Assembly (NCBI GenBank): GCA_963676105.1
Contig: OY781039.1
Location: 1,931,220-1,963,219 of the forward strand
Direction of reading: 5' to 3'
Source of the DNA: Erysipelotrichaceae bacterium
GTDB lineage: Bacteria; Bacillota_I; Bacilli_A; Erysipelotrichales; Erysipelotrichaceae
DNA length: 32,000 nt
The position numbers were made by a program, and so were the translations under genes. This document shows, piece by piece, positions 1,107-25,184 of this stretch; the first letter of the stretch is position 1; each line of letters begins with the position of its first letter. A model generated the notes under the pieces. The model was not told the DNA's origin, made no database searches, and saw only the letters and a list, made by a program, of their open reading frames with translations.

Positions 1107-3074
1107 ATGGCAATAGAAAAAATGCGCCTGCTTCGCTTAGCAGGAACAAAAGACAATATTGAAGAATTCGTATTACATGCCTTTGCGACTTATGACTTAC
1201 ATGCTGAGTTAGCATCTAAAGTTGTCAATGAAGGTAATGGTGGAAAACTCATGCCTGAGGATTCACGCTATGCAGAATTCTTAAATCGTATTGAAAATAT
1301 TATTTCTCATTTACATGCAGAAGTACGGTGTGCTTATGATGGACATTCATTCTTCACAATTGATGAGATTGAACATGAGATCCATGAAGCAGAAGTTAAT
1401 TTCGAAAAGATTACTGAAACGAAACTTGGTCAATCTAAATTATCTAAAGAAGATTTACAAGCGATTTCTAAACTTCGTGAATTTGATATCTCAGATTTAA
1501 ATCATACTCAGTTTATAGGGATTCACTTTGGTAAAATTCCTGTAAATTCTTTAGAGAAATTAGATTTATATGAATTAAACTCGGCGTTTACTGTACATAC
1601 ATTAGTTGAGAATGATTACTATGCGTGGATCTTAGTGATGTGTATGACTGAAAAACATGAAATGATTGGCAATTTCTTAACATCTTTATATTTTGAACCA
1701 ATTGCAGTGCCTAAGTTTGATGATGAGAAATTATCCTTCGATTGTGAATCAAGACTAGGACGCATCTATGGATTTGTTCACTATAAAGCAGATATTCGTA
1801 AATACTATAAATATATTGCGGTCTTTGGTGAAACCTATGTTATTACAGGGTTTGTGCCGGAAAAGAATGTTCAATATTATAAATCACTCTTTGGCGATCT
1901 GCATAATGTGGTTATTGAAGATAAACCACCAACCCGAGAAGATGAAGGGGCAGAAAGCTTAATTGTTAAAAAGGAAGATGATGAAGGGCATGTCCTTCGA
2001 GTCAAGAACGTAACCACCGAAACCGGAGATGTTGAAGAATTCAAGGTACAAGATTTCCCAGCTGGAATGGAAGAAGGACTAGAACCTCCAACTGTTCTTA
2101 GAAATGGTTGGTTTGCGAAACCATTTGAGCTGTTTGTAGAAATGTATGGATTACCACATTATCATGATTTCGATCCAAGTTTAGTCTTTGCGATCACCTA
2201 TAGTTTACTCTTTGGAATTATGTTTGGAGATTTAGGTCAAGGTGTCTTACTCTTTATATTTGGTAGTTTTATGTATAAACGAAGTGGTGGTCAACTTTGG
2301 GCTATTATTCAAAGAATCTCGATTTCTTCTATGGTATTCGGTCTATTATTTGGCTCTGTCTTTGGCTTTGAACATATCTTAGATCCACTTTATCACTTGC
2401 TCGGGTTCCGTGAAAAACCAATTGAAGTTATGAGTAATGCATTTACAATGCCACTTCTACTCAGCGCAGTTGGACTTGGCGCACTTTTGATTTTTGGAGC
2501 GATTGCTTTAAATACCATTTTGAACTTTAGACATAAGAAATATGGTGATGCTTTCTTCAGTCCGAATGGTATTGCAGGACTTGTGTTCTATGGTTCAATT
2601 ATTGGATTTATCGTATTGGAAATGGGTTTAGGTTATGAAGTTACAAACTCATTTACGATCGCAATATTCATTGTCTTACCACTACTTGTTATCTTATTCC
2701 ATGCGCCACTTGATAGTGCGATGCATAAAATGAAATATCAACCACATGAAGGATGGGTTGGTTATATTGTCGAAGGTATTTTTGAACTATTAGAGATTGT
2801 GTTAAGTTTCTTAACTAACACTATGAGTTTCCTTCGTGTAGGTGGCTTCGTATTAAGTCACGCCGGAATGATGCTAGTTGTCATGACTCTTCATGAAATG
2901 ACTGGTCAATTCGGTATTATTGTTGTAATTCTTGGCAACATCTTCGTGGTGGGCCTTGAAGGCTTAATTGTAGGTATTCAAACCCTACGTTTAGAATATA
3001 ACGAGATGTTTAGCCGATATTTCGAAGGCGGGGGTAAAAAATATATCCCTACAACGCTATTAAACAATGATTAG
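1107..3074 (+). CDS. ntpI: V/A-type ATP synthase subunit I (stator a-subunit)
   Basis: 655 aa with a soluble N-terminal half and a multi-TM C-terminal half. It has the typical PPTxLxN...KPFE...DP segment and the LRLxxxE-type C-terminal region (IQTLRLEYNEMF). Confidence 0.92.
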   Translation: MAIEKMRLLRLAGTKDNIEEFVLHAFATYDLHAELASKVVNEGNGGKLMPEDSRYAEFLNRIENIISHLHAEVRCAYDGHSFFTIDEIEHEIHEAEVNFEKITETKLGQSKLSKEDLQAISKLREFDISDLNHTQFIGIHFGKIPVNSLEKLDLYELNSAFTVHTLVENDYYAWILVMCMTEKHEMIGNFLTSLYFEPIAVPKFDDEKLSFDCESRLGRIYGFVHYKADIRKYYKYIAVFGETYVITGFVPEKNVQYYKSLFGDLHNVVIEDKPPTREDEGAESLIVKKEDDEGHVLRVKNVTTETGDVEEFKVQDFPAGMEEGLEPPTVLRNGWFAKPFELFVEMYGLPHYHDFDPSLVFAITYSLLFGIMFGDLGQGVLLFIFGSFMYKRSGGQLWAIIQRISISSMVFGLLFGSVFGFEHILDPLYHLLGFREKPIEVMSNAFTMPLLLSAVGLGALLIFGAIALNTILNFRHKKYGDAFFSPNGIAGLVFYGSIIGFIVLEMGLGYEVTNSFTIAIFIVLPLLVILFHAPLDSAMHKMKYQPHEGWVGYIVEGIFELLEIVLSFLTNTMSFLRVGGFVLSHAGMMLVVMTLHEMTGQFGIIVVILGNIFVVGLEGLIVGIQTLRLEYNEMFSRYFEGGGKKYIPTTLLNND

Positions 3075-3086
3075 GAGGAACTTTAA

Positions 3087-3533
3087 ATGTTAACATTGTT
3101 TCAAATCTTTGGCCCTATGGTCGTAATTGCATTAGTGATGATTCCACTTTATTTCATCTTAAAGGGGAATGTAAATTCTAAAAATGCAAAGTTTAGAGTA
3201 TTAACTCAAATTTCAGTTTTCAGTGCTGTTTTTCTTGCTGTATTTTTATTCCAATTAAATGGTTTAGTTGCTCAAGCAGCTGAAACAACAAGCGCAACAA
3301 CTGGTTTTGTTGGATCTAACGCTCAAGGTATGGGCTTCTTAGCGGCTGCTTTAGCGACTTCTGCATCAGCCATTGGTGCTGGTTTAGCGGTTGCATCTGC
3401 TGCTCCTGCTGCGATTGGCGCAATCAGTGAAAACAGCGAAAACTTTGGTAAAGCAATGATCTTTGTTGCTTTGGCTGAAGGGGTTGCGATTTACGGTTTA
3501 TTAATCTCAATTTTAATTATCAACGCATTATAG
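3087..3533 (+). CDS. ntpK: V/A-type ATP synthase proteolipid subunit K (c-ring)
   Basis: AGGAGG lies 8-9 nt upstream. The C-terminal hairpin GAGLAVASAAPAAIG...FVALAEGVAIYGLLISILI carries the conserved ion-binding Glu. The N-terminal ~65 aa add two further hydrophobic helices. Confidence 0.85.
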   Translation: MLTLFQIFGPMVVIALVMIPLYFILKGNVNSKNAKFRVLTQISVFSAVFLAVFLFQLNGLVAQAAETTSATTGFVGSNAQGMGFLAAALATSASAIGAGLAVASAAPAAIGAISENSENFGKAMIFVALAEGVAIYGLLISILIINAL

Positions 3534-3541
3534 GAAACGAT

Positions 3542-3850
3542 ATGAAGTTTTATGTAATTAGTGATAATACAGATACGCAAATGGGCTTGCGTTTAGCAGG
3601 TATCGAAGGTGTTGTTGCGCATACGCGTGATGAAGTGTTAGAGGAGCTCAACAAAGCAATTGCGATGGATGACGTAGCGATTATTTTAATGACGACTTTA
3701 GCGATTAACACCTGCGCTGATGTGGTCGCTGATTTAAAACTGACACTACAACGTCCACTGATTGTGGAAATTCCAGATCGTCATGGTAGTGCGAAAATAT
3801 CAGAAGTGATTGACTCGTATATATCAGAAGCGATTGGCATCAAGATTTAA
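3542..3850 (+). CDS. V/A-type ATP synthase subunit F
   Basis: 102 aa; the MKFYVISD...GLRLAGIEGV pattern is typical of V-type subunit F. Operon position also fits. Confidence 0.85.
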   Translation: MKFYVISDNTDTQMGLRLAGIEGVVAHTRDEVLEELNKAIAMDDVAIILMTTLAINTCADVVADLKLTLQRPLIVEIPDRHGSAKISEVIDSYISEAIGIKI

Positions 3851-3861
3851 GAGGTAGACAC

Positions 3862-4458
3862 ATGGAAGATTTAGAAAAAAGAACACAAGATTTAGTCGAT
3901 GAGATTAATCGAAAAGTCGATCAATTGATTGAAGAGTCGAATCAATATTTTGAAGACGAGAAAAAACGTTTAATTACAGAATATGAGAACGAAGCACGAG
4001 AAGAAACTAGTGTCTATTTAGAACAGGAACTTAATGAACTTAAGATTAATGTTCAACTCAAAGAATCTCAAGCCAAATGGAAAGCACGTAAAGATTTATT
4101 TATTCAACGTCAAACGATGGTCGATGAATTATTTAATGATATTTCTAAAAAATTAATTGCCTATTCACAAAGTACTAAATATGATTCTTGGTTAAAAGAC
4201 TCATTAACAAAAGTGCTTGAAAAAGTAAGTAAAGAAAATCCAGTCGTAATCGAATATAAACCAATTGATCAACCAATGGTTGAACGTTTATGTAAGGACT
4301 ATCAAGATGTTGTGACAATTGAAAGTCGTGAAACGATTTTTATTGGTGGTTATATTGTGACTTATACCAATCTTGGATTAGAGGAAGATAATACCATCGA
4401 TGTTAAGTTAAAGGATCAGAAGGAATGGTTTGCAATCAATTCCGGTCTAGATTTCTAA
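3862..4458 (+). CDS. ntpE: V/A-type ATP synthase subunit E (peripheral stalk)
   Basis: 198 aa with a long charged N-terminal coiled-coil helix and a C-terminal globular part. It sits between F and A. Confidence 0.8.
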   Translation: MEDLEKRTQDLVDEINRKVDQLIEESNQYFEDEKKRLITEYENEAREETSVYLEQELNELKINVQLKESQAKWKARKDLFIQRQTMVDELFNDISKKLIAYSQSTKYDSWLKDSLTKVLEKVSKENPVVIEYKPIDQPMVERLCKDYQDVVTIESRETIFIGGYIVTYTNLGLEEDNTIDVKLKDQKEWFAINSGLDF

Positions 4459-20275: not shown

Positions 20276-20312
20276 ATAAAACAAAAAGAATGAAACATAA
20301 GGTTCCATTCTT
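20276..20312 (-). terminator. rho-independent terminator directly after the GGDEF/HD-GYP gene
   Basis: On the minus strand: aagaatggaac-cttat-gtttcattctt (10 bp, one mismatch) followed by tttttgtttt. The hairpin starts at the stop codon. Confidence 0.7.
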
Positions 20313-22861
20313 TAAGCTCTTAATTCAACATCTACTGTCGCAGCACGGGTTGGTTCGATCATCACATCACCTTGATCAATTAAATTGATAAAGATTTGTG
20401 ATAATTCTGGATCAAATTGTCCGCCGGCATTTCGTCTGATTTCTTCAACCGCATATTCAACCGTATGATAAGTTTTATAGTGACGATCAGATGTAATCGC
20501 ATCAAAGGCATCAGCTAAGCAAATACATCTTGCGCCAAATGGAATGTTTTCACCTCTAAGTTGACGAGGATAACCACGACCATCATATCGTTCGTGATGT
20601 CCAATAACGGCAGGTATAACTTTATTAAAAGTAGGTAAATACTTAATAATGGTGACGGATAAATCTACATGACGTTTCATCACTTCAAATTCTTCATTGG
20701 TTAAACGAGTTGTCTTGGTTAAAATATGTTCTGGTATACCAATCTTACCAATGTCATGAAGAAGTGAAGCTTGTCGAATGATTTCAATATCACTCTCACT
20801 TGCGCCTGCCGCCTGAGCGATGGCAGTCGCGTATTTCGCAACCCGTTGAGAATGACCAAAGGTAATATGATCTTTCGCATCAATGGTTGCGGTTAAGGCA
20901 TAAATGGTTGCCCATTGGTTTTCGCTTAAATCAAACTCTGCGACGGGTGTATCTGCCACTTCGGCAGTATAGATGGTCGTACGGTTACGACCATTACGTT
21001 TTGAGTATATTAAGGCCGTATTGGCATTCTTTAATAAACTAACCGCATCTGCACAGGCACTTGGATACACACATAAACCTACTGACACCGTGACATAACG
21101 TGTACTTTCATTAATGTTTGAAACAGATAAGTCTTCAATTTGAGTTCTAATTTTTTCAGCTAAATCATAACTTTGTTTAGTATCAGAATTATTGAGTAGA
21201 ACACCAAAGATGTCACCTGCATATCTAAAGACTAAGGTCGATTCATGAACACTTCGTTTGATTCGATCTGCAATCTTTGTTAAGACAAAGTCGCCAGATA
21301 GATGACCATAGATATCGTTGTACACCGTTAATGAATCGATGCCAAATAAGATAAGGGATAAACTTATGGGTTTCGCATCCACATGTTTATTTAATGCTTC
21401 CATGAAATAGCGGTGATTATACGTTTGGGTTAATGAATCCGTAATCGCTTCTGTTTGTGTCTTTTCGAATAATAAGGCATTTGTTAAAGCCATCGCCGCA
21501 GTTGAACACATGAGTTCAATTGATTCAATATGATGGAAAGCTTCAACAGATCTGTGATCAGTGTGACAGATTAACATAAAACCAATTAAGTCATGATGAA
21601 CTTTTAAAGGTATCGCAATCTCAAATAATAGTTCGTTTAAATGGTCAAAATCTTCTTCCCACATGGATTTAAAGAGTGGGTGTTGATAAAGATCTTCCCC
21701 ATGTATAGGTTTATCATCATTTTCGAACCATTTCGCAAATGGATGATTTAAATTAAATTTGAGTTTTTTACGTTCAAGTTTCTTAGATGATGCATAACAT
21801 TCATACTCTTCTTGAACTGAATTTTTAAGATAAAGATAAATTTTTCCATGTTCTAGGATAGATTGAGAGATTTTGATCAATTCTTCACTGATTTCTTTCG
21901 CATTTAAATTATTTGCGACTGATTGGGTAAAGTTATGAATTTCTGTTTCTCTTCTCATTTCATCTTTATAGAAGAATTGATTAATGAGTTTATGAATTAA
22001 AGAAAAGATAGGTTGGAAAATTAAAATCCCAATAATAATCGCTAGCACAAAGACAATTGAATTATCAATGCCAGTATTGAGAGATTGAAAGAATGACCAA
22101 GCTTTATTTAAGACAAACGAGGTTGTGATAGAAAGTGCAACCAAGGCAACACTTAAAGTTAATGCTTTTGTGATGACTATTTTTAGTTCAATAACACGAT
22201 TTGCGTAGACTGCTTTCATCATCATTAATACAGCTATTGATCCCGCAAAGAAGTCAAATGGATATTTCCCAATGATTGGGACAAGATTTATTCCCATTCC
22301 GATAAAGATAATAAAGAGAGACACAACAATCTGTTTCAAACCTTTATTAATGGAGAGTGATTTCTTAATATGGTTATGAGCAATCAAGAAACAAGACATT
22401 AATTGTAAGAAAATTAAACCATAAGAAACATAAGCTCCCCAAGATAAGGTGTAGTTTAATTGAGTGTATGGGGCAATATCTAAAGCCATCATGTGGGCTT
22501 CTGATGTGACATGTCCTGTAAAGATAAGTCCAACCATAAAGATGGTGATTAGACCCCACATTGTGATTGGAATCCAACGTCTACGATCAATATAAACATT
22601 TAAGAATATATATGCTGCATATGGAAGGATCGCACTTCCCATAATCATGATTCGATTATAAAATAGGGTACCAGGATAAACATCTAACTTCATTAATAAT
22701 GAAGAAGCACTCCATATAGCCATTGAAAATACGACTAAGACAAAGGATTTAATCATCGCATCTTTCTTAGATAAAACTAAAATCGCAAGTAAAGTTAAAC
22801 TCAATAAAAAGGCAGTGGTTGGAAGTCCCCAATAGAATAGGGTTAGGCCATAATCACTCAT
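20312..22861 (-). CDS. multi-TM sensor with GAF-like region, degenerate GGDEF domain and HD-GYP phosphodiesterase domain
   Basis: 849 aa with about 8 N-terminal TM helices (residues 1-290). The GGDEF-domain core is ...DSLTQTYNHRYF...GDFVL...FRYAGDIFGVLL (signature AGDIF). The HD-GYP core is ...FGHSQRV...LLHDIGKIGIP...GHHERYDGRGYP... GGGAGGA SD upstream; ATGA overlap with the GH3 gene. Confidence 0.9.
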   Translation of the reverse strand: MSDYGLTLFYWGLPTTAFLLSLTLLAILVLSKKDAMIKSFVLVVFSMAIWSASSLLMKLDVYPGTLFYNRIMIMGSAILPYAAYIFLNVYIDRRRWIPITMWGLITIFMVGLIFTGHVTSEAHMMALDIAPYTQLNYTLSWGAYVSYGLIFLQLMSCFLIAHNHIKKSLSINKGLKQIVVSLFIIFIGMGINLVPIIGKYPFDFFAGSIAVLMMMKAVYANRVIELKIVITKALTLSVALVALSITTSFVLNKAWSFFQSLNTGIDNSIVFVLAIIIGILIFQPIFSLIHKLINQFFYKDEMRRETEIHNFTQSVANNLNAKEISEELIKISQSILEHGKIYLYLKNSVQEEYECYASSKKLERKKLKFNLNHPFAKWFENDDKPIHGEDLYQHPLFKSMWEEDFDHLNELLFEIAIPLKVHHDLIGFMLICHTDHRSVEAFHHIESIELMCSTAAMALTNALLFEKTQTEAITDSLTQTYNHRYFMEALNKHVDAKPISLSLILFGIDSLTVYNDIYGHLSGDFVLTKIADRIKRSVHESTLVFRYAGDIFGVLLNNSDTKQSYDLAEKIRTQIEDLSVSNINESTRYVTVSVGLCVYPSACADAVSLLKNANTALIYSKRNGRNRTTIYTAEVADTPVAEFDLSENQWATIYALTATIDAKDHITFGHSQRVAKYATAIAQAAGASESDIEIIRQASLLHDIGKIGIPEHILTKTTRLTNEEFEVMKRHVDLSVTIIKYLPTFNKVIPAVIGHHERYDGRGYPRQLRGENIPFGARCICLADAFDAITSDRHYKTYHTVEYAVEEIRRNAGGQFDPELSQIFINLIDQGDVMIEPTRAATVDVELRA

Positions 22862-24489
22862 GATACAGTCCTCCCAAACGCACGTTTTAATATTTCTACC
22901 ACATCAAAGTGGTTTGGATTGACTTTCGCTAGTTTATGATGAATTGTTTTTTGATAAGCATCAATGGTCCCAAAAGGTAAGATTGTGATTGTTAGTGGAT
23001 CAATCCCTAACATCTTTTTAAGATTTTTAAAGTCTTGATCTACATAGGCAAAGTTTAATTCTAATTGAGCTTGAATAAGATCCACACGGTCCCAACCTAA
23101 ATCATCTTGTTTATGATTGAGTTCAATCGCTAAGTTAAGATAAGGTCTTTGTTGGTCATCATATGATTTACGTGCAAACCAGTTAGAGATTGGTAATCGA
23201 GATAACTTAATAACTTCGGTTAAGGTTTCTTCAGTAATACGGGTAAATCCAGCTAAATCTACGACAGGATCAACACGGTCAATATATCGCAGATGTGGTA
23301 AAGCAATGCCATCTTTCATGCGTTCTAGTACTTCGCATTTAAAGACATCACCTACACGATAGCGTGCAAATGCCCCGCCTTTAAAGGTAGTGATAACGAG
23401 CTCATAAGATTCATCTTCTTTAAGTTCATCCATTAAATATGTTTTTGGTTGATAAGATGGATCTTCTAAGTTCTTATAAAATTCATGCATCGGAATGAAT
23501 TCATAGAAACATATATGGGGTAGGAAGATTAGACCGTCTTTTTCCCATGATTCCACCCCAATGCACGTTGGCTCGGTTCCACCAAATACTTCAAGTGGAA
23601 CAACTCCCCAATAATCTGCAATCTTCTTTTTAAAGTGCAGAGTATCAGTTCCTATACAAACAAAACCTTTTAAATCAAAGACATCCTTTGGATAAATGGC
23701 TTCTTTCGTAAATGTACTTTTTATTTTTGCGATCGCAAATTTACTGAGTTGTGATAATTTAAAGTCTAATAAATTAATGCTTCCAGATGAACCAGAAGCG
23801 AATTGTTCAGACATGCGAACAATGACAGAACTTAAACCATAAAAAAGATCTAAGCCTTGTTGAACACCCATCTTAAAGCCTTCTTTATTTCTTTGAGAAA
23901 AGCCCATTTTTAAGCCTTCATCAATTGGAGGAAAATAGTTAACACTAAAATCATCACGAATGACATCTGGTAATAAACCTGTTAGATAAGGTAAAGGTGC
24001 CATTCCGTTTAAGAAATTCATACCTGGTTTTAAATCAAAGTGACCTTTTTTGCGTGATGATGCTAACATAATGCACGTAAATGCGGAGTCACGATAATTT
24101 CTAATCATAGCTTCTGTGTAAGGAGCTAGTTTTACAGGTGCTTTACCACCAACCCAGGTTGTTTCAATCCAAATGGCTGCAGGGGCTGGTAACATGTTTT
24201 CTTGTTTACTTAAAAGAATATCTGCGTAATCCTCATAATGGGTTAGAGGAACTTTTTCTCTGAATTCCTGCATCGTTTTAATGGTTTGACCATTAAATAA
24301 TTTTTGCCCAAGTTCACAGTTATTAAAGAGTTGAATTTGTTCTAAAAGGAGTTGTTCTTGAATAGCCATGAACTCAGGTACGGATAAATCTAAAAACCCA
24401 CAGTAACGATTCCATAGTTCTGTGTAATTCTTACGTTTTAAATGTTCATCAAAACTTAAGTGAGATGTGCTTAAGACGGATTCTGACAT
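22858..24489 (-). CDS. GH3-family (acyl-acid amido synthetase-like, ANL superfamily) protein
   Basis: 543 aa with FREKVPLTHYEDYADIL, VFGGTEPT, and YELVITTFKGGAFARYRVGDVF...LPHLRYIDR, the GH3 pattern. AAGGAG lies 8 nt upstream. The start lies inside the 3' end of the upstream gene (19-nt overlap). Confidence 0.8.
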   Translation of the reverse strand: MSESVLSTSHLSFDEHLKRKNYTELWNRYCGFLDLSVPEFMAIQEQLLLEQIQLFNNCELGQKLFNGQTIKTMQEFREKVPLTHYEDYADILLSKQENMLPAPAAIWIETTWVGGKAPVKLAPYTEAMIRNYRDSAFTCIMLASSRKKGHFDLKPGMNFLNGMAPLPYLTGLLPDVIRDDFSVNYFPPIDEGLKMGFSQRNKEGFKMGVQQGLDLFYGLSSVIVRMSEQFASGSSGSINLLDFKLSQLSKFAIAKIKSTFTKEAIYPKDVFDLKGFVCIGTDTLHFKKKIADYWGVVPLEVFGGTEPTCIGVESWEKDGLIFLPHICFYEFIPMHEFYKNLEDPSYQPKTYLMDELKEDESYELVITTFKGGAFARYRVGDVFKCEVLERMKDGIALPHLRYIDRVDPVVDLAGFTRITEETLTEVIKLSRLPISNWFARKSYDDQQRPYLNLAIELNHKQDDLGWDRVDLIQAQLELNFAYVDQDFKNLKKMLGIDPLTITILPFGTIDAYQKTIHHKLAKVNPNHFDVVEILKRAFGRTVS

Positions 24490-25022
24490 GTGCTTTGCTC
24501 CTTAAGTTTAAATAGAAGAAATGGGACTCGTTTTTGATAATCACTATAACCATCAATTGAGTATGGGAAAATGAGCTGATCTTGAATTAAGATATGGATG
24601 AAGTCAAAGGCTGTCCATAAAATGGCTGCCCATAAAACCAGTGTGCTACCTGTACCTAAAGAAAATCCAATCGCCATTAATATAAATCCCCAAAGACCTG
24701 GATGACGGCATAATCCATAGATACCTGTATCAACTACCGATACTTTATCTAACTTTGTGTATGTATCTGATGCAGGTAGTGCAAAAAATAATGCATAGAA
24801 TTGTTCAATTGCACCAATAATGACTAAAGTAAAAAACCAAGGATTTGAGTTAAAGGCAATAGAATGATCTTGTGAAATTAGAACCATCACAAGTGCGTAA
24901 ATTAATAAAATAATGGATAGTGGAAATAAGAGGTTAAATGATCTATGCCACTTATAAATTTTATTCAAGTCAAAAAGAGTTAATAAAACAAATGATGTAC
25001 AGCCAAGATAAATCCAGCTCAT
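24471..25022 (-). CDS. ICMT/PEMT-like integral-membrane methyltransferase family protein
   Basis: 183 aa, 4-5 TM. VVDTGIYGLCRHPGLWGFIL...IHILIQDQLIFPYSIDGYSDYQKRVPFLL matches the (V/T)xGxYxxxRHPxYxG...EE..L...FG..Y..Y core of isoprenylcysteine carboxyl / phospholipid methyltransferases. AGGGAAGGG SD upstream. Confidence 0.7.
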   Translation of the reverse strand: MSWIYLGCTSFVLLTLFDLNKIYKWHRSFNLLFPLSIILLIYALVMVLISQDHSIAFNSNPWFFTLVIIGAIEQFYALFFALPASDTYTKLDKVSVVDTGIYGLCRHPGLWGFILMAIGFSLGTGSTLVLWAAILWTAFDFIHILIQDQLIFPYSIDGYSDYQKRVPFLLFKLKEQSTCQNPS

Positions 25023-25150
25023 CTTACAACCCTTCCCTAAGGTCTAATAAAAAACCGACCCAAAAATGTGGCCGGTTACGCTACGAGCTCATACAGGGGA
25101 TAAGCGTCCAAATGTACCCTGTAATCAAGGCTTCCAGAAAATGACTAGTA
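25023..25150 (-). promoter_or_regulatory. structured, locally GC-enriched 5' leader of the methyltransferase-GH3-HD-GYP operon (riboswitch/attenuator candidate)
   Basis: Lies between a consensus promoter and the first ATG. It contains a 7-bp helix (25092-25098 with 25117-25123). A 5-nt loop segment (25103-25107) is complementary to 25078-25082. A terminator hairpin lies just before the SD. Confidence 0.5.
25045..25077 (-). terminator. leader-internal rho-independent terminator (attenuator)
   Basis: On the minus strand: aaccggcc-acattttt-gggtcggtt (8 bp including one G-U) followed by ttttttatt. It lies about 25 nt upstream of the operon's first start codon. Confidence 0.6.
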
Positions 25151-25155
25151 TTGCC

Positions 25156-25184
25156 ATTATAGAATCAAAAAAACGCCTATTCAA
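25156..25184 (-). promoter_or_regulatory. sigma-70 promoter (TTGAAT-17 nt-TATAAT)
   Basis: On the minus strand, TTGAAT (25184-25179), an exact 17-nt spacer, then TATAAT (25161-25156). Confidence 0.7.

Follow-up and report, generated by a model that had tools for sequence, protein, structure and literature searches.

The c-di-GMP-II riboswitch class, represented by Rfam family RF01786 and by structure 3Q3Z from Clostridium acetobutylicum, is the closest described counterpart of the element reported here. Its aptamer combines helices P1, P2 and P3 with a k-turn, recorded for 3Q3Z in PMC4316175, and with a pseudoknot between the P3 loop and a strand just 5′ of an AACCG core. Thirteen ligand contacts have been listed for 3Q3Z: A13, A14, U37, G39, U60, A61, C68, A69, A70, C71, C72, G73 and A74 (PMC7288161). 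In C. difficile, Cdi2_3, Cdi2_4 (pilA1) and the cmrRST leader are ON switches: c-di-GMP permits read-through, and in its absence transcription ends at a terminator (PMC6366702, PMC11477304). Their targets are adhesins, type IV pili or a two-component system. Two variant families belong to the same clan (CL00127), c-di-GMP-II-GAG (RF03169) and c-di-GMP-II-GCG, and were reportedly proposed by Weinberg and colleagues in 2017 to sense other signals.

The window analysed here is a 32,000-nucleotide stretch of DNA from an Erysipelotrichaceae bacterium. On its minus strand, the leader of a three-gene operon resembles the c-di-GMP-II class far beyond chance (Table 1). The RF01786 match is full-length, with E = 9.1e-10 in a local search and E = 8.3e-8 when both strands of the whole window were searched with 4227 families, and it is the sole Rfam match in the window with E < 1. 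Its score of 48.2 bits falls 5.3 bits short of the curated gathering cut-off of 53.5, and an Rfam scan of the window at gathering thresholds gave no hits; the aptamer surfaces only in E-value mode. Most of the shortfall comes from the outer half of P1, an 11-bp helix in the consensus, where the window sequence largely fails to pair. After clan competition the window keeps the canonical model in preference to RF03169 or the GCG family, a comparison made by model score. An Rfam E-value search of the window turned up no further c-di-GMP aptamer. Matches to Hrs13 (15.7 bits), which merely picks up the terminator, and to mir-1305 (15.9 bits) were rejected as chance.

A preliminary description of this DNA had proposed a riboswitch with the terminator hairpin as its expression platform, and both of these proposals hold. 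It had found no known class for the leader, and this part falls: a covariance-model scan of Rfam returns RF01786 over its full length, orthologous leaders straddle the family cut-off, and the structure covaries in the manner of class II. c-di-GMP was among the candidate ligands that it had named. Judged from its sequence, the leader is a sub-threshold member of the known c-di-GMP-II class and represents no new RNA class or mechanism.

Table 1. Positions in the window of the leader elements and of the operon downstream, written 5′ to 3′ on the strand given.
Feature	Position	Strand	Detail	Basis
Sigma-70-type promoter	25184..25156	minus	TTGAAT 25184-25179, 17-nt spacer, TATAAT 25161-25156	Sequence reading and consensus promoter scan; -35/-10 positions kept in orthologous leaders (alignment A2)
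c-di-GMP-II riboswitch aptamer	25144..25061	minus	Model positions 1-84 of 84	RF01786 match
P1, inner part	25136-25134 / 25071-25069	minus	5′ strand UGG with CCA	RF01786 alignment
Contact A13 equivalent, P2 5′ strand and k-turn 5′ side	25133-25125	minus	A25133; AGC 25132-25130; k-turn bulge CUU 25129-25127; sheared-pair GA 25126-25125	
P3 hairpin	25123-25117 / 25098-25092	minus	UACAGGG / CCCUGUA; loop with U25110, G25108 and ACGCU 25107-25103	
k-turn 3′ side and P2 3′ strand	25090-25085	minus	GA 25090-25089; GCU 25088-25086; then C25085	
Pseudoknot 3′ strand and core	25082-25073	minus	AGCGU 25082-25078, pairing with ACGCU 25107-25103, directly followed by invariant core AACCG 25077-25073	
Intrinsic terminator (expression platform)	25077..25046	minus	AACCGGCC 25077-25070 / GGUCGGUU 25060-25053; U-run 25052-25049, then A, UU	
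SD and start codon of gene 1	25038..25020	minus	SD AGGGAAGGG 25038-25030; ATG 25022-25020	Sequence reading
Gene 1	25022..24471	minus	183-aa membrane protein, PEMT-like methyltransferase	Pfam PF04191, 30.3 bits
Gene 2	24489..22858	minus	543-aa GH3-family (acyl-acid amido synthetase-type) protein	Pfam GH3_M and GH3
Gene 3	22861..20312	minus	849-aa protein; 7TM sensor region, GGDEF, HD-GYP	Pfam
Terminator-like hairpin and T-run	20313..20285	minus	Directly 3′ of gene 3; probably the operon end	Terminator scan

The elements that the preliminary description had picked out lie where it had placed them. The 7-bp helix is identified as P3, and the pairing between its loop and AGCGU, which is central to the aptamer, is the class II pseudoknot; the terminator hairpin with its U-run, the SD and the ATG were likewise located correctly. 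So was the promoter, which was re-read on the minus strand and recovered in a promoter scan with 10 of 12 matches to the consensus. It lies 12 nt upstream of the aptamer, and the predicted transcription start site is at about 25151-25149, 5-7 nt before the aptamer. The leader had also been called richer in G+C than its surroundings, and its segment has 47% G+C versus 34.6% for the window. An AGGG element of the SD is kept in the orthologous leaders (alignment A2). Plain minimum-free-energy (MFE) folding of the leader gave z = -0.95 and a wrong structure; it is uninformative for this aptamer because the key element is a pseudoknot. A 68-aa open reading frame on the plus strand (24938-25144) overlaps both the leader and the 5′ end of gene 1 and is most likely spurious.

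In its parts the aptamer has the same P1-P2-(k-turn)-P3 architecture as RF01786 and 3Q3Z, with all 84 model positions matched, the same P3-loop pseudoknot with its second strand just 5′ of AACCG, and both the core and the paired GA dinucleotides of the k-turn kept. The overall fold is also that of the c-di-GMP-II-GAG and -GCG families. The window differs from RF01786 and 3Q3Z in P1, which has about 3 solid, contiguous inner pairs while the outer part of the 11-bp consensus helix is mostly mismatched; in its pseudoknot, which is ACGC(U)/(A)GCGU and not GCAC/GUGC, with two of the four pairs changed on both sides; and in the C that it carries at the position of A61. The P3 hairpin has a predicted energy of -8.5 kcal/mol.

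Among the homologues of the GH3 protein (1601 with E ≤ 1e-10 among 8000 candidates scored), the closest are 79-93% identical and are encoded on metagenomic contigs (L081, L082/L083, L084, L085 and L086). These contigs carry the same three genes together with an alignable leader that includes promoter, aptamer and terminator. The RF01786 score is 54.6 bits for the leader of L082, which passes the cut-off, 52.5 for L081, 47.6 for L086 and 47.1 for L085. The short P1 and the compensated pseudoknot variant place the orthologous clade around the cut-off, at 47-55 bits. Across these orthologues, whose proteins are 52-93% identical, the aptamer core hardly varies and substitutions in P3 are compensatory, in the series ACAGGG/CCCUGU, UCAGGG/CCCUGA, AUAGGG/CCCUAU and AUUGGGG/CCCCAU. 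This argues for selection on the structure.

A wider set of aptamers was collected from metagenomes with the pattern GAGCNNGTNGCGTAACCG, in which the 3′ pseudoknot strand and the core are the only fixed parts; it returned 120 stretches. Our own model R1, from whose seed L082 had been excluded since MAFFT shifted it by one base, recognised 29 aptamers among the 80 loci listed. GGACGC is present in all but one of the aligned aptamers, either in the P3 loop itself or in sequence inserted there; the exception, L167, has GGGCGCC. With scores of 55.5-73.1 bits, nineteen metagenomic sequences that have an ACGC/GCGU pseudoknot exceed the RF01786 cut-off, and this pairing is therefore a recurrent variant within the family.

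Covariation among relatives, which the preliminary description had put forward as a check on its helices, was examined in an alignment of 30 sequences (A5). The helices are kept: 97.1% of the cells are paired and 14 of the 18 pairs show double changes, where the alignment was fitted by a model to P1, P2 and P3 and the pseudoknot, which lies outside that model, was added for counting. The covariation score is 0.662 versus 0.195 for shuffled alignments, and none of 500 shuffles reaches the observed value; when the registers were slid, covariation was at most 0.142 and pairing at most 50%. P3 is 96.6% paired, with double changes in all 7 of its pairs, and P2 is 93.3% paired with double changes in one of 3 (pair 15-109, which varies as AU, UA and GC). 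The inner part of P1 is 98.9% paired, and double changes occur in two of its 3 pairs (UA/CG, GC/AU and GC). The pseudoknot is 99.3% paired, and its fifth pair is UA in 17 sequences and CG in 7. The k-turn, judged by its sequence signature alone (a 3-nt bulge and two GA dinucleotides), is kept in at least 29 of the 30 sequences.

Several contigs of the metagenomic set have features of their own. L106 carries two c-di-GMP-II aptamers (742-832 and 3939-4028) with the pseudoknots GCAU/AUGC, at 742, and ACGC/GCGU, a natural example of pseudoknot covariation within one contig, and L110 also carries two (2057-2146 and 3348-3437). The aptamers of L115 (2383-2486) and L141 (8652-8742) have the ACGC/GCGU pseudoknot yet score best against RF03169; in L115 the P3 loop is interrupted by an additional hairpin. 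On the bioreactor-metagenome contig L149, an aptamer of the class accompanies a CRISPR array (2836-3595) with 12 CRISPR-DR2 repeats.

Ligand contacts were mapped from the list in the PMC7288161 review through the Rfam consensus, in which positions are the crystal number minus 1. Eleven of the 13 contact positions are kept or compatible in the window, including A13, A14, U37, G39, U60 and the whole A69-G73 core, to which AACCG corresponds. C68 is replaced by U, a change compensated by A at its pairing partner G40. The equivalent of A74 is G in the window, at a position that is itself variable (A in 17 and G in 13 of the 30 sequences). The single uncompensated departure is the C at the A61 equivalent (C25085), where the 30 sequences have A in 24 cases, C in 3 and G in 3. 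C is found there in the window, L081, L084 and L086, and the canonical A in L082 and L085. Because L082 and L085 carry A with all else equal, the position appears to be tolerant rather than a specificity switch.

The intrinsic terminator, with a predicted hairpin energy of -11.1 kcal/mol, shares sequence with the aptamer: its 5′ arm, AACCGGCC, overlaps both the ligand core AACCG and the 3′ strand of P1. A terminator scan skipped this hairpin because its 9-nt loop exceeds the 8-nt limit of the scan. The overlap extends beyond the window. In its clade and in most class members the 5′ arm is the AACCGRCY core, and the majority of the 30 sequences can form a hairpin from this core with a U-run behind it. 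Under a strict test, which asked for a perfect 6-bp stem, the overlap recurs in 17 of 29 members of the class; tolerating one mismatch raises this number. The 3′ arm tracks the core across the class (CCGACC/GGUCGG, CCGACU/AGUCGG and CCGGCU/AGCCGG). Within the close clade the terminator is 92.9% paired and shows conservation only, with no double covariation.

Because the 5′ arm of the terminator consists of the aptamer core and the P1 3′ strand, the ligand-bound aptamer and the terminator should be mutually exclusive. The default state should be termination, given a hairpin of -11.1 kcal/mol set against a P1 of about 3 solid pairs. Since the terminator arm is the ligand core, and since those class II riboswitches of C. 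difficile that work switch expression ON, the direction of control in vivo, which the preliminary description had left open, is most likely ON as well. Both organisms are low-GC Bacillota, and the platform of the window leader would be the standard one of ON-type members. The window leader has neither the tandem arrangement nor the group I ribozyme partner of Cdi2_1.

In the mechanism that we propose, RNA polymerase would initiate a few nucleotides before the aptamer. In the absence of ligand, AACCGGCC would pair with GGUCGGUU, the terminator would form, and polymerase would stop at the U-run, near 25050. With c-di-GMP bound, AACCG(G)CC would be held as ligand core and P1 3′ strand, stacked beside the ACGCU/AGCGU pseudoknot. 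The terminator would thereby be blocked with no need of a separate antiterminator, and transcription would read through into the three-gene operon. High c-di-GMP would thus promote its own degradation through the HD-GYP protein, a negative feedback, along with the expression of two other enzymes.

The gene context of the leader is atypical for the class: where the C. difficile switches named above control adhesins, type IV pili or a two-component system, the window leader precedes genes for a PEMT-like methyltransferase, a GH3 protein and a 7TM protein that combines a degenerate GGDEF with an HD-GYP domain. In the product of gene 3, the GGDEF motif reads AGDIF (residues 546-552) and the I-site position HEST, and the HD-GYP motifs HDIGK and HHERYDGRGYP are intact. 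Homologues all keep the HD-GYP motifs (HDIGK or HDVGK; HHERxDGxGYP) while the GGDEF motif drifts between lineages, as GGEEF, GGKEF, SGKEF, GGDVF and AGDIF. Canonical GGEEF occurs only in a Syntrophomonadaceae/Pelotomaculum-type group; the clade of the window has AGDIF, and L086 GGDIF. In most lineages the GGDEF domain has probably become regulatory. The HD-GYP domain resembles the active phosphodiesterases PmGH (4mcw, 1.3e-36) and V-cGAP3 (5z7c, 1.9e-38). With its GGDEF motif degenerate, its HD-GYP motifs intact and these phosphodiesterase matches, gene 3 most likely encodes a c-di-GMP phosphodiesterase, and an ON switch before such an enzyme predicts negative feedback on c-di-GMP.

The other two proteins of the operon are probably envelope- or lipid-modifying. 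Two NCBIfam similarities, both far below threshold, were seen: a faint one between the GH3 protein and the lyso-ornithine-lipid synthetase OlsH, and a weak one between the PEMT-like protein and lipid, lipid A and isoprenylcysteine methyltransferases. They may hint at synthesis of a methylated aminolipid and are offered as a lead only. No relevant publication on the GH3/HD-GYP cassette emerged from a literature search.

Outside the operon, the next open reading frame past gene 3 (194 aa, within 20313-19684 on the minus strand) is without a Pfam hit; its only similarity, to class IV adenylate cyclases (CyaB/CYTH), is weak, at 24 bits versus a cut-off of 58. The frame is present in L081 and absent from L082. 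Upstream, the minus strand at 28850-26590 encodes a PilT-like T2SSE/T4P ATPase (347 aa) beside three small open reading frames with hydrophobic N-termini that look pseudopilin-like by eye. Neither L081 nor L082 shares this neighbourhood.

The cassette itself is widespread. The PEMT-like, GH3 and 7TM-GGDEF-HD-GYP genes are kept in order in 74-78 of 80 GTDB loci from several Bacillota orders, which span Erysipelotrichales, Syntrophomonadaceae, Peptococcaceae, Lachnospiraceae and Oscillospiraceae. Among the cassette loci examined (L001-L087), the riboswitch occurs only in the close clade of the window. In the 80 more distant GTDB loci no c-di-GMP-II aptamer was found with Rfam (L001-L020) or with model R1 (all 80), in searches that covered a 2.5 kb flank, some operons starting further upstream; these loci accordingly contributed nothing to the covariation analysis. 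As the distant homologues are without the leader, the element appears to be restricted to a lineage.

Taken together, these data make it highly probable that the leader is a transcriptional ON c-di-GMP-II riboswitch gating the PEMT-like/GH3/HD-GYP operon, whose HD-GYP protein is most likely a phosphodiesterase. The same fold might instead have acquired another ligand, such as 3′3′-cGAMP or pGpG, like the variant families of the clan; we consider this improbable. The A61 equivalent is C in the window and in three of its orthologues, although two others carry the canonical A there with the rest equal, and the AACCG core and the equivalents of U37, G39 and A13 are all canonical in the window. The pseudoknot sequence departs from the consensus, and the two metagenomic aptamers of L115 and L141 share its type and score best against RF03169; against this, the canonical cut-off is exceeded by 19 sequences that share this pseudoknot, and for the window itself RF01786 is the best clan member, with no overlapping variant-family match up to E 10. 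Nor does the enzyme decide for another ligand: V-cGAP3, the PDB entry that the HD-GYP domain matches best, is a cGAMP-specific phosphodiesterase, but PmGH, a c-di-GMP phosphodiesterase, matches about equally well. Ligand specificity is nonetheless the main residual uncertainty, because of the A61C change and the variant families in the same clan.

A sub-threshold score and a degenerate P1 could also mark a decaying, non-functional c-di-GMP-II relic whose promoter and terminator set a constitutive low read-through, and of the 16 c-di-GMP riboswitches predicted in C. difficile just 11 are functional (PMC6366702). We find this very hard to credit, as the core is near-invariant and P3 changes are compensatory in orthologues whose proteins have diverged to 52-93% identity, and promoter, terminator and pseudoknot are all retained. 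That the leader might be some unrelated attenuator, or represent a novel riboswitch class merely resembling c-di-GMP-II, would agree with the lack of an Rfam hit at gathering thresholds and has next to no probability in our view. It is effectively refuted by the full-length match at E 8.3e-8, by the covariation, and by a continuous series of relatives that reaches above the RF01786 cut-off, and the helices, pseudoknot, k-turn and core are all common to c-di-GMP-II.

The preferred reading, an ON c-di-GMP-II riboswitch before a predicted phosphodiesterase operon, has consequences for annotation and for physiology. For annotation, it brings out a genuine riboswitch that escapes Rfam scans run at fixed thresholds. 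It would also be an uncommon case of a c-di-GMP riboswitch placed before a c-di-GMP turnover enzyme, and predicts homeostatic negative feedback. A widespread and unstudied PEMT-GH3-HD-GYP cassette would be tied to c-di-GMP signalling, and the leader offers a simple experimental handle on it. More tentatively, and as a possibility that we place somewhat short of likely, an Erysipelotrichales-like lineage may have placed an ON c-di-GMP-II riboswitch before a cassette that, induced by c-di-GMP, would combine degradation of the messenger with acyl-amide and methylation chemistry, possibly of a membrane aminolipid; a more radical version of this tentative reading would have the A61C aptamers shifted in ligand specificity. 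If true, it would give the first regulatory clue to a cassette that is common to many Bacillota families.
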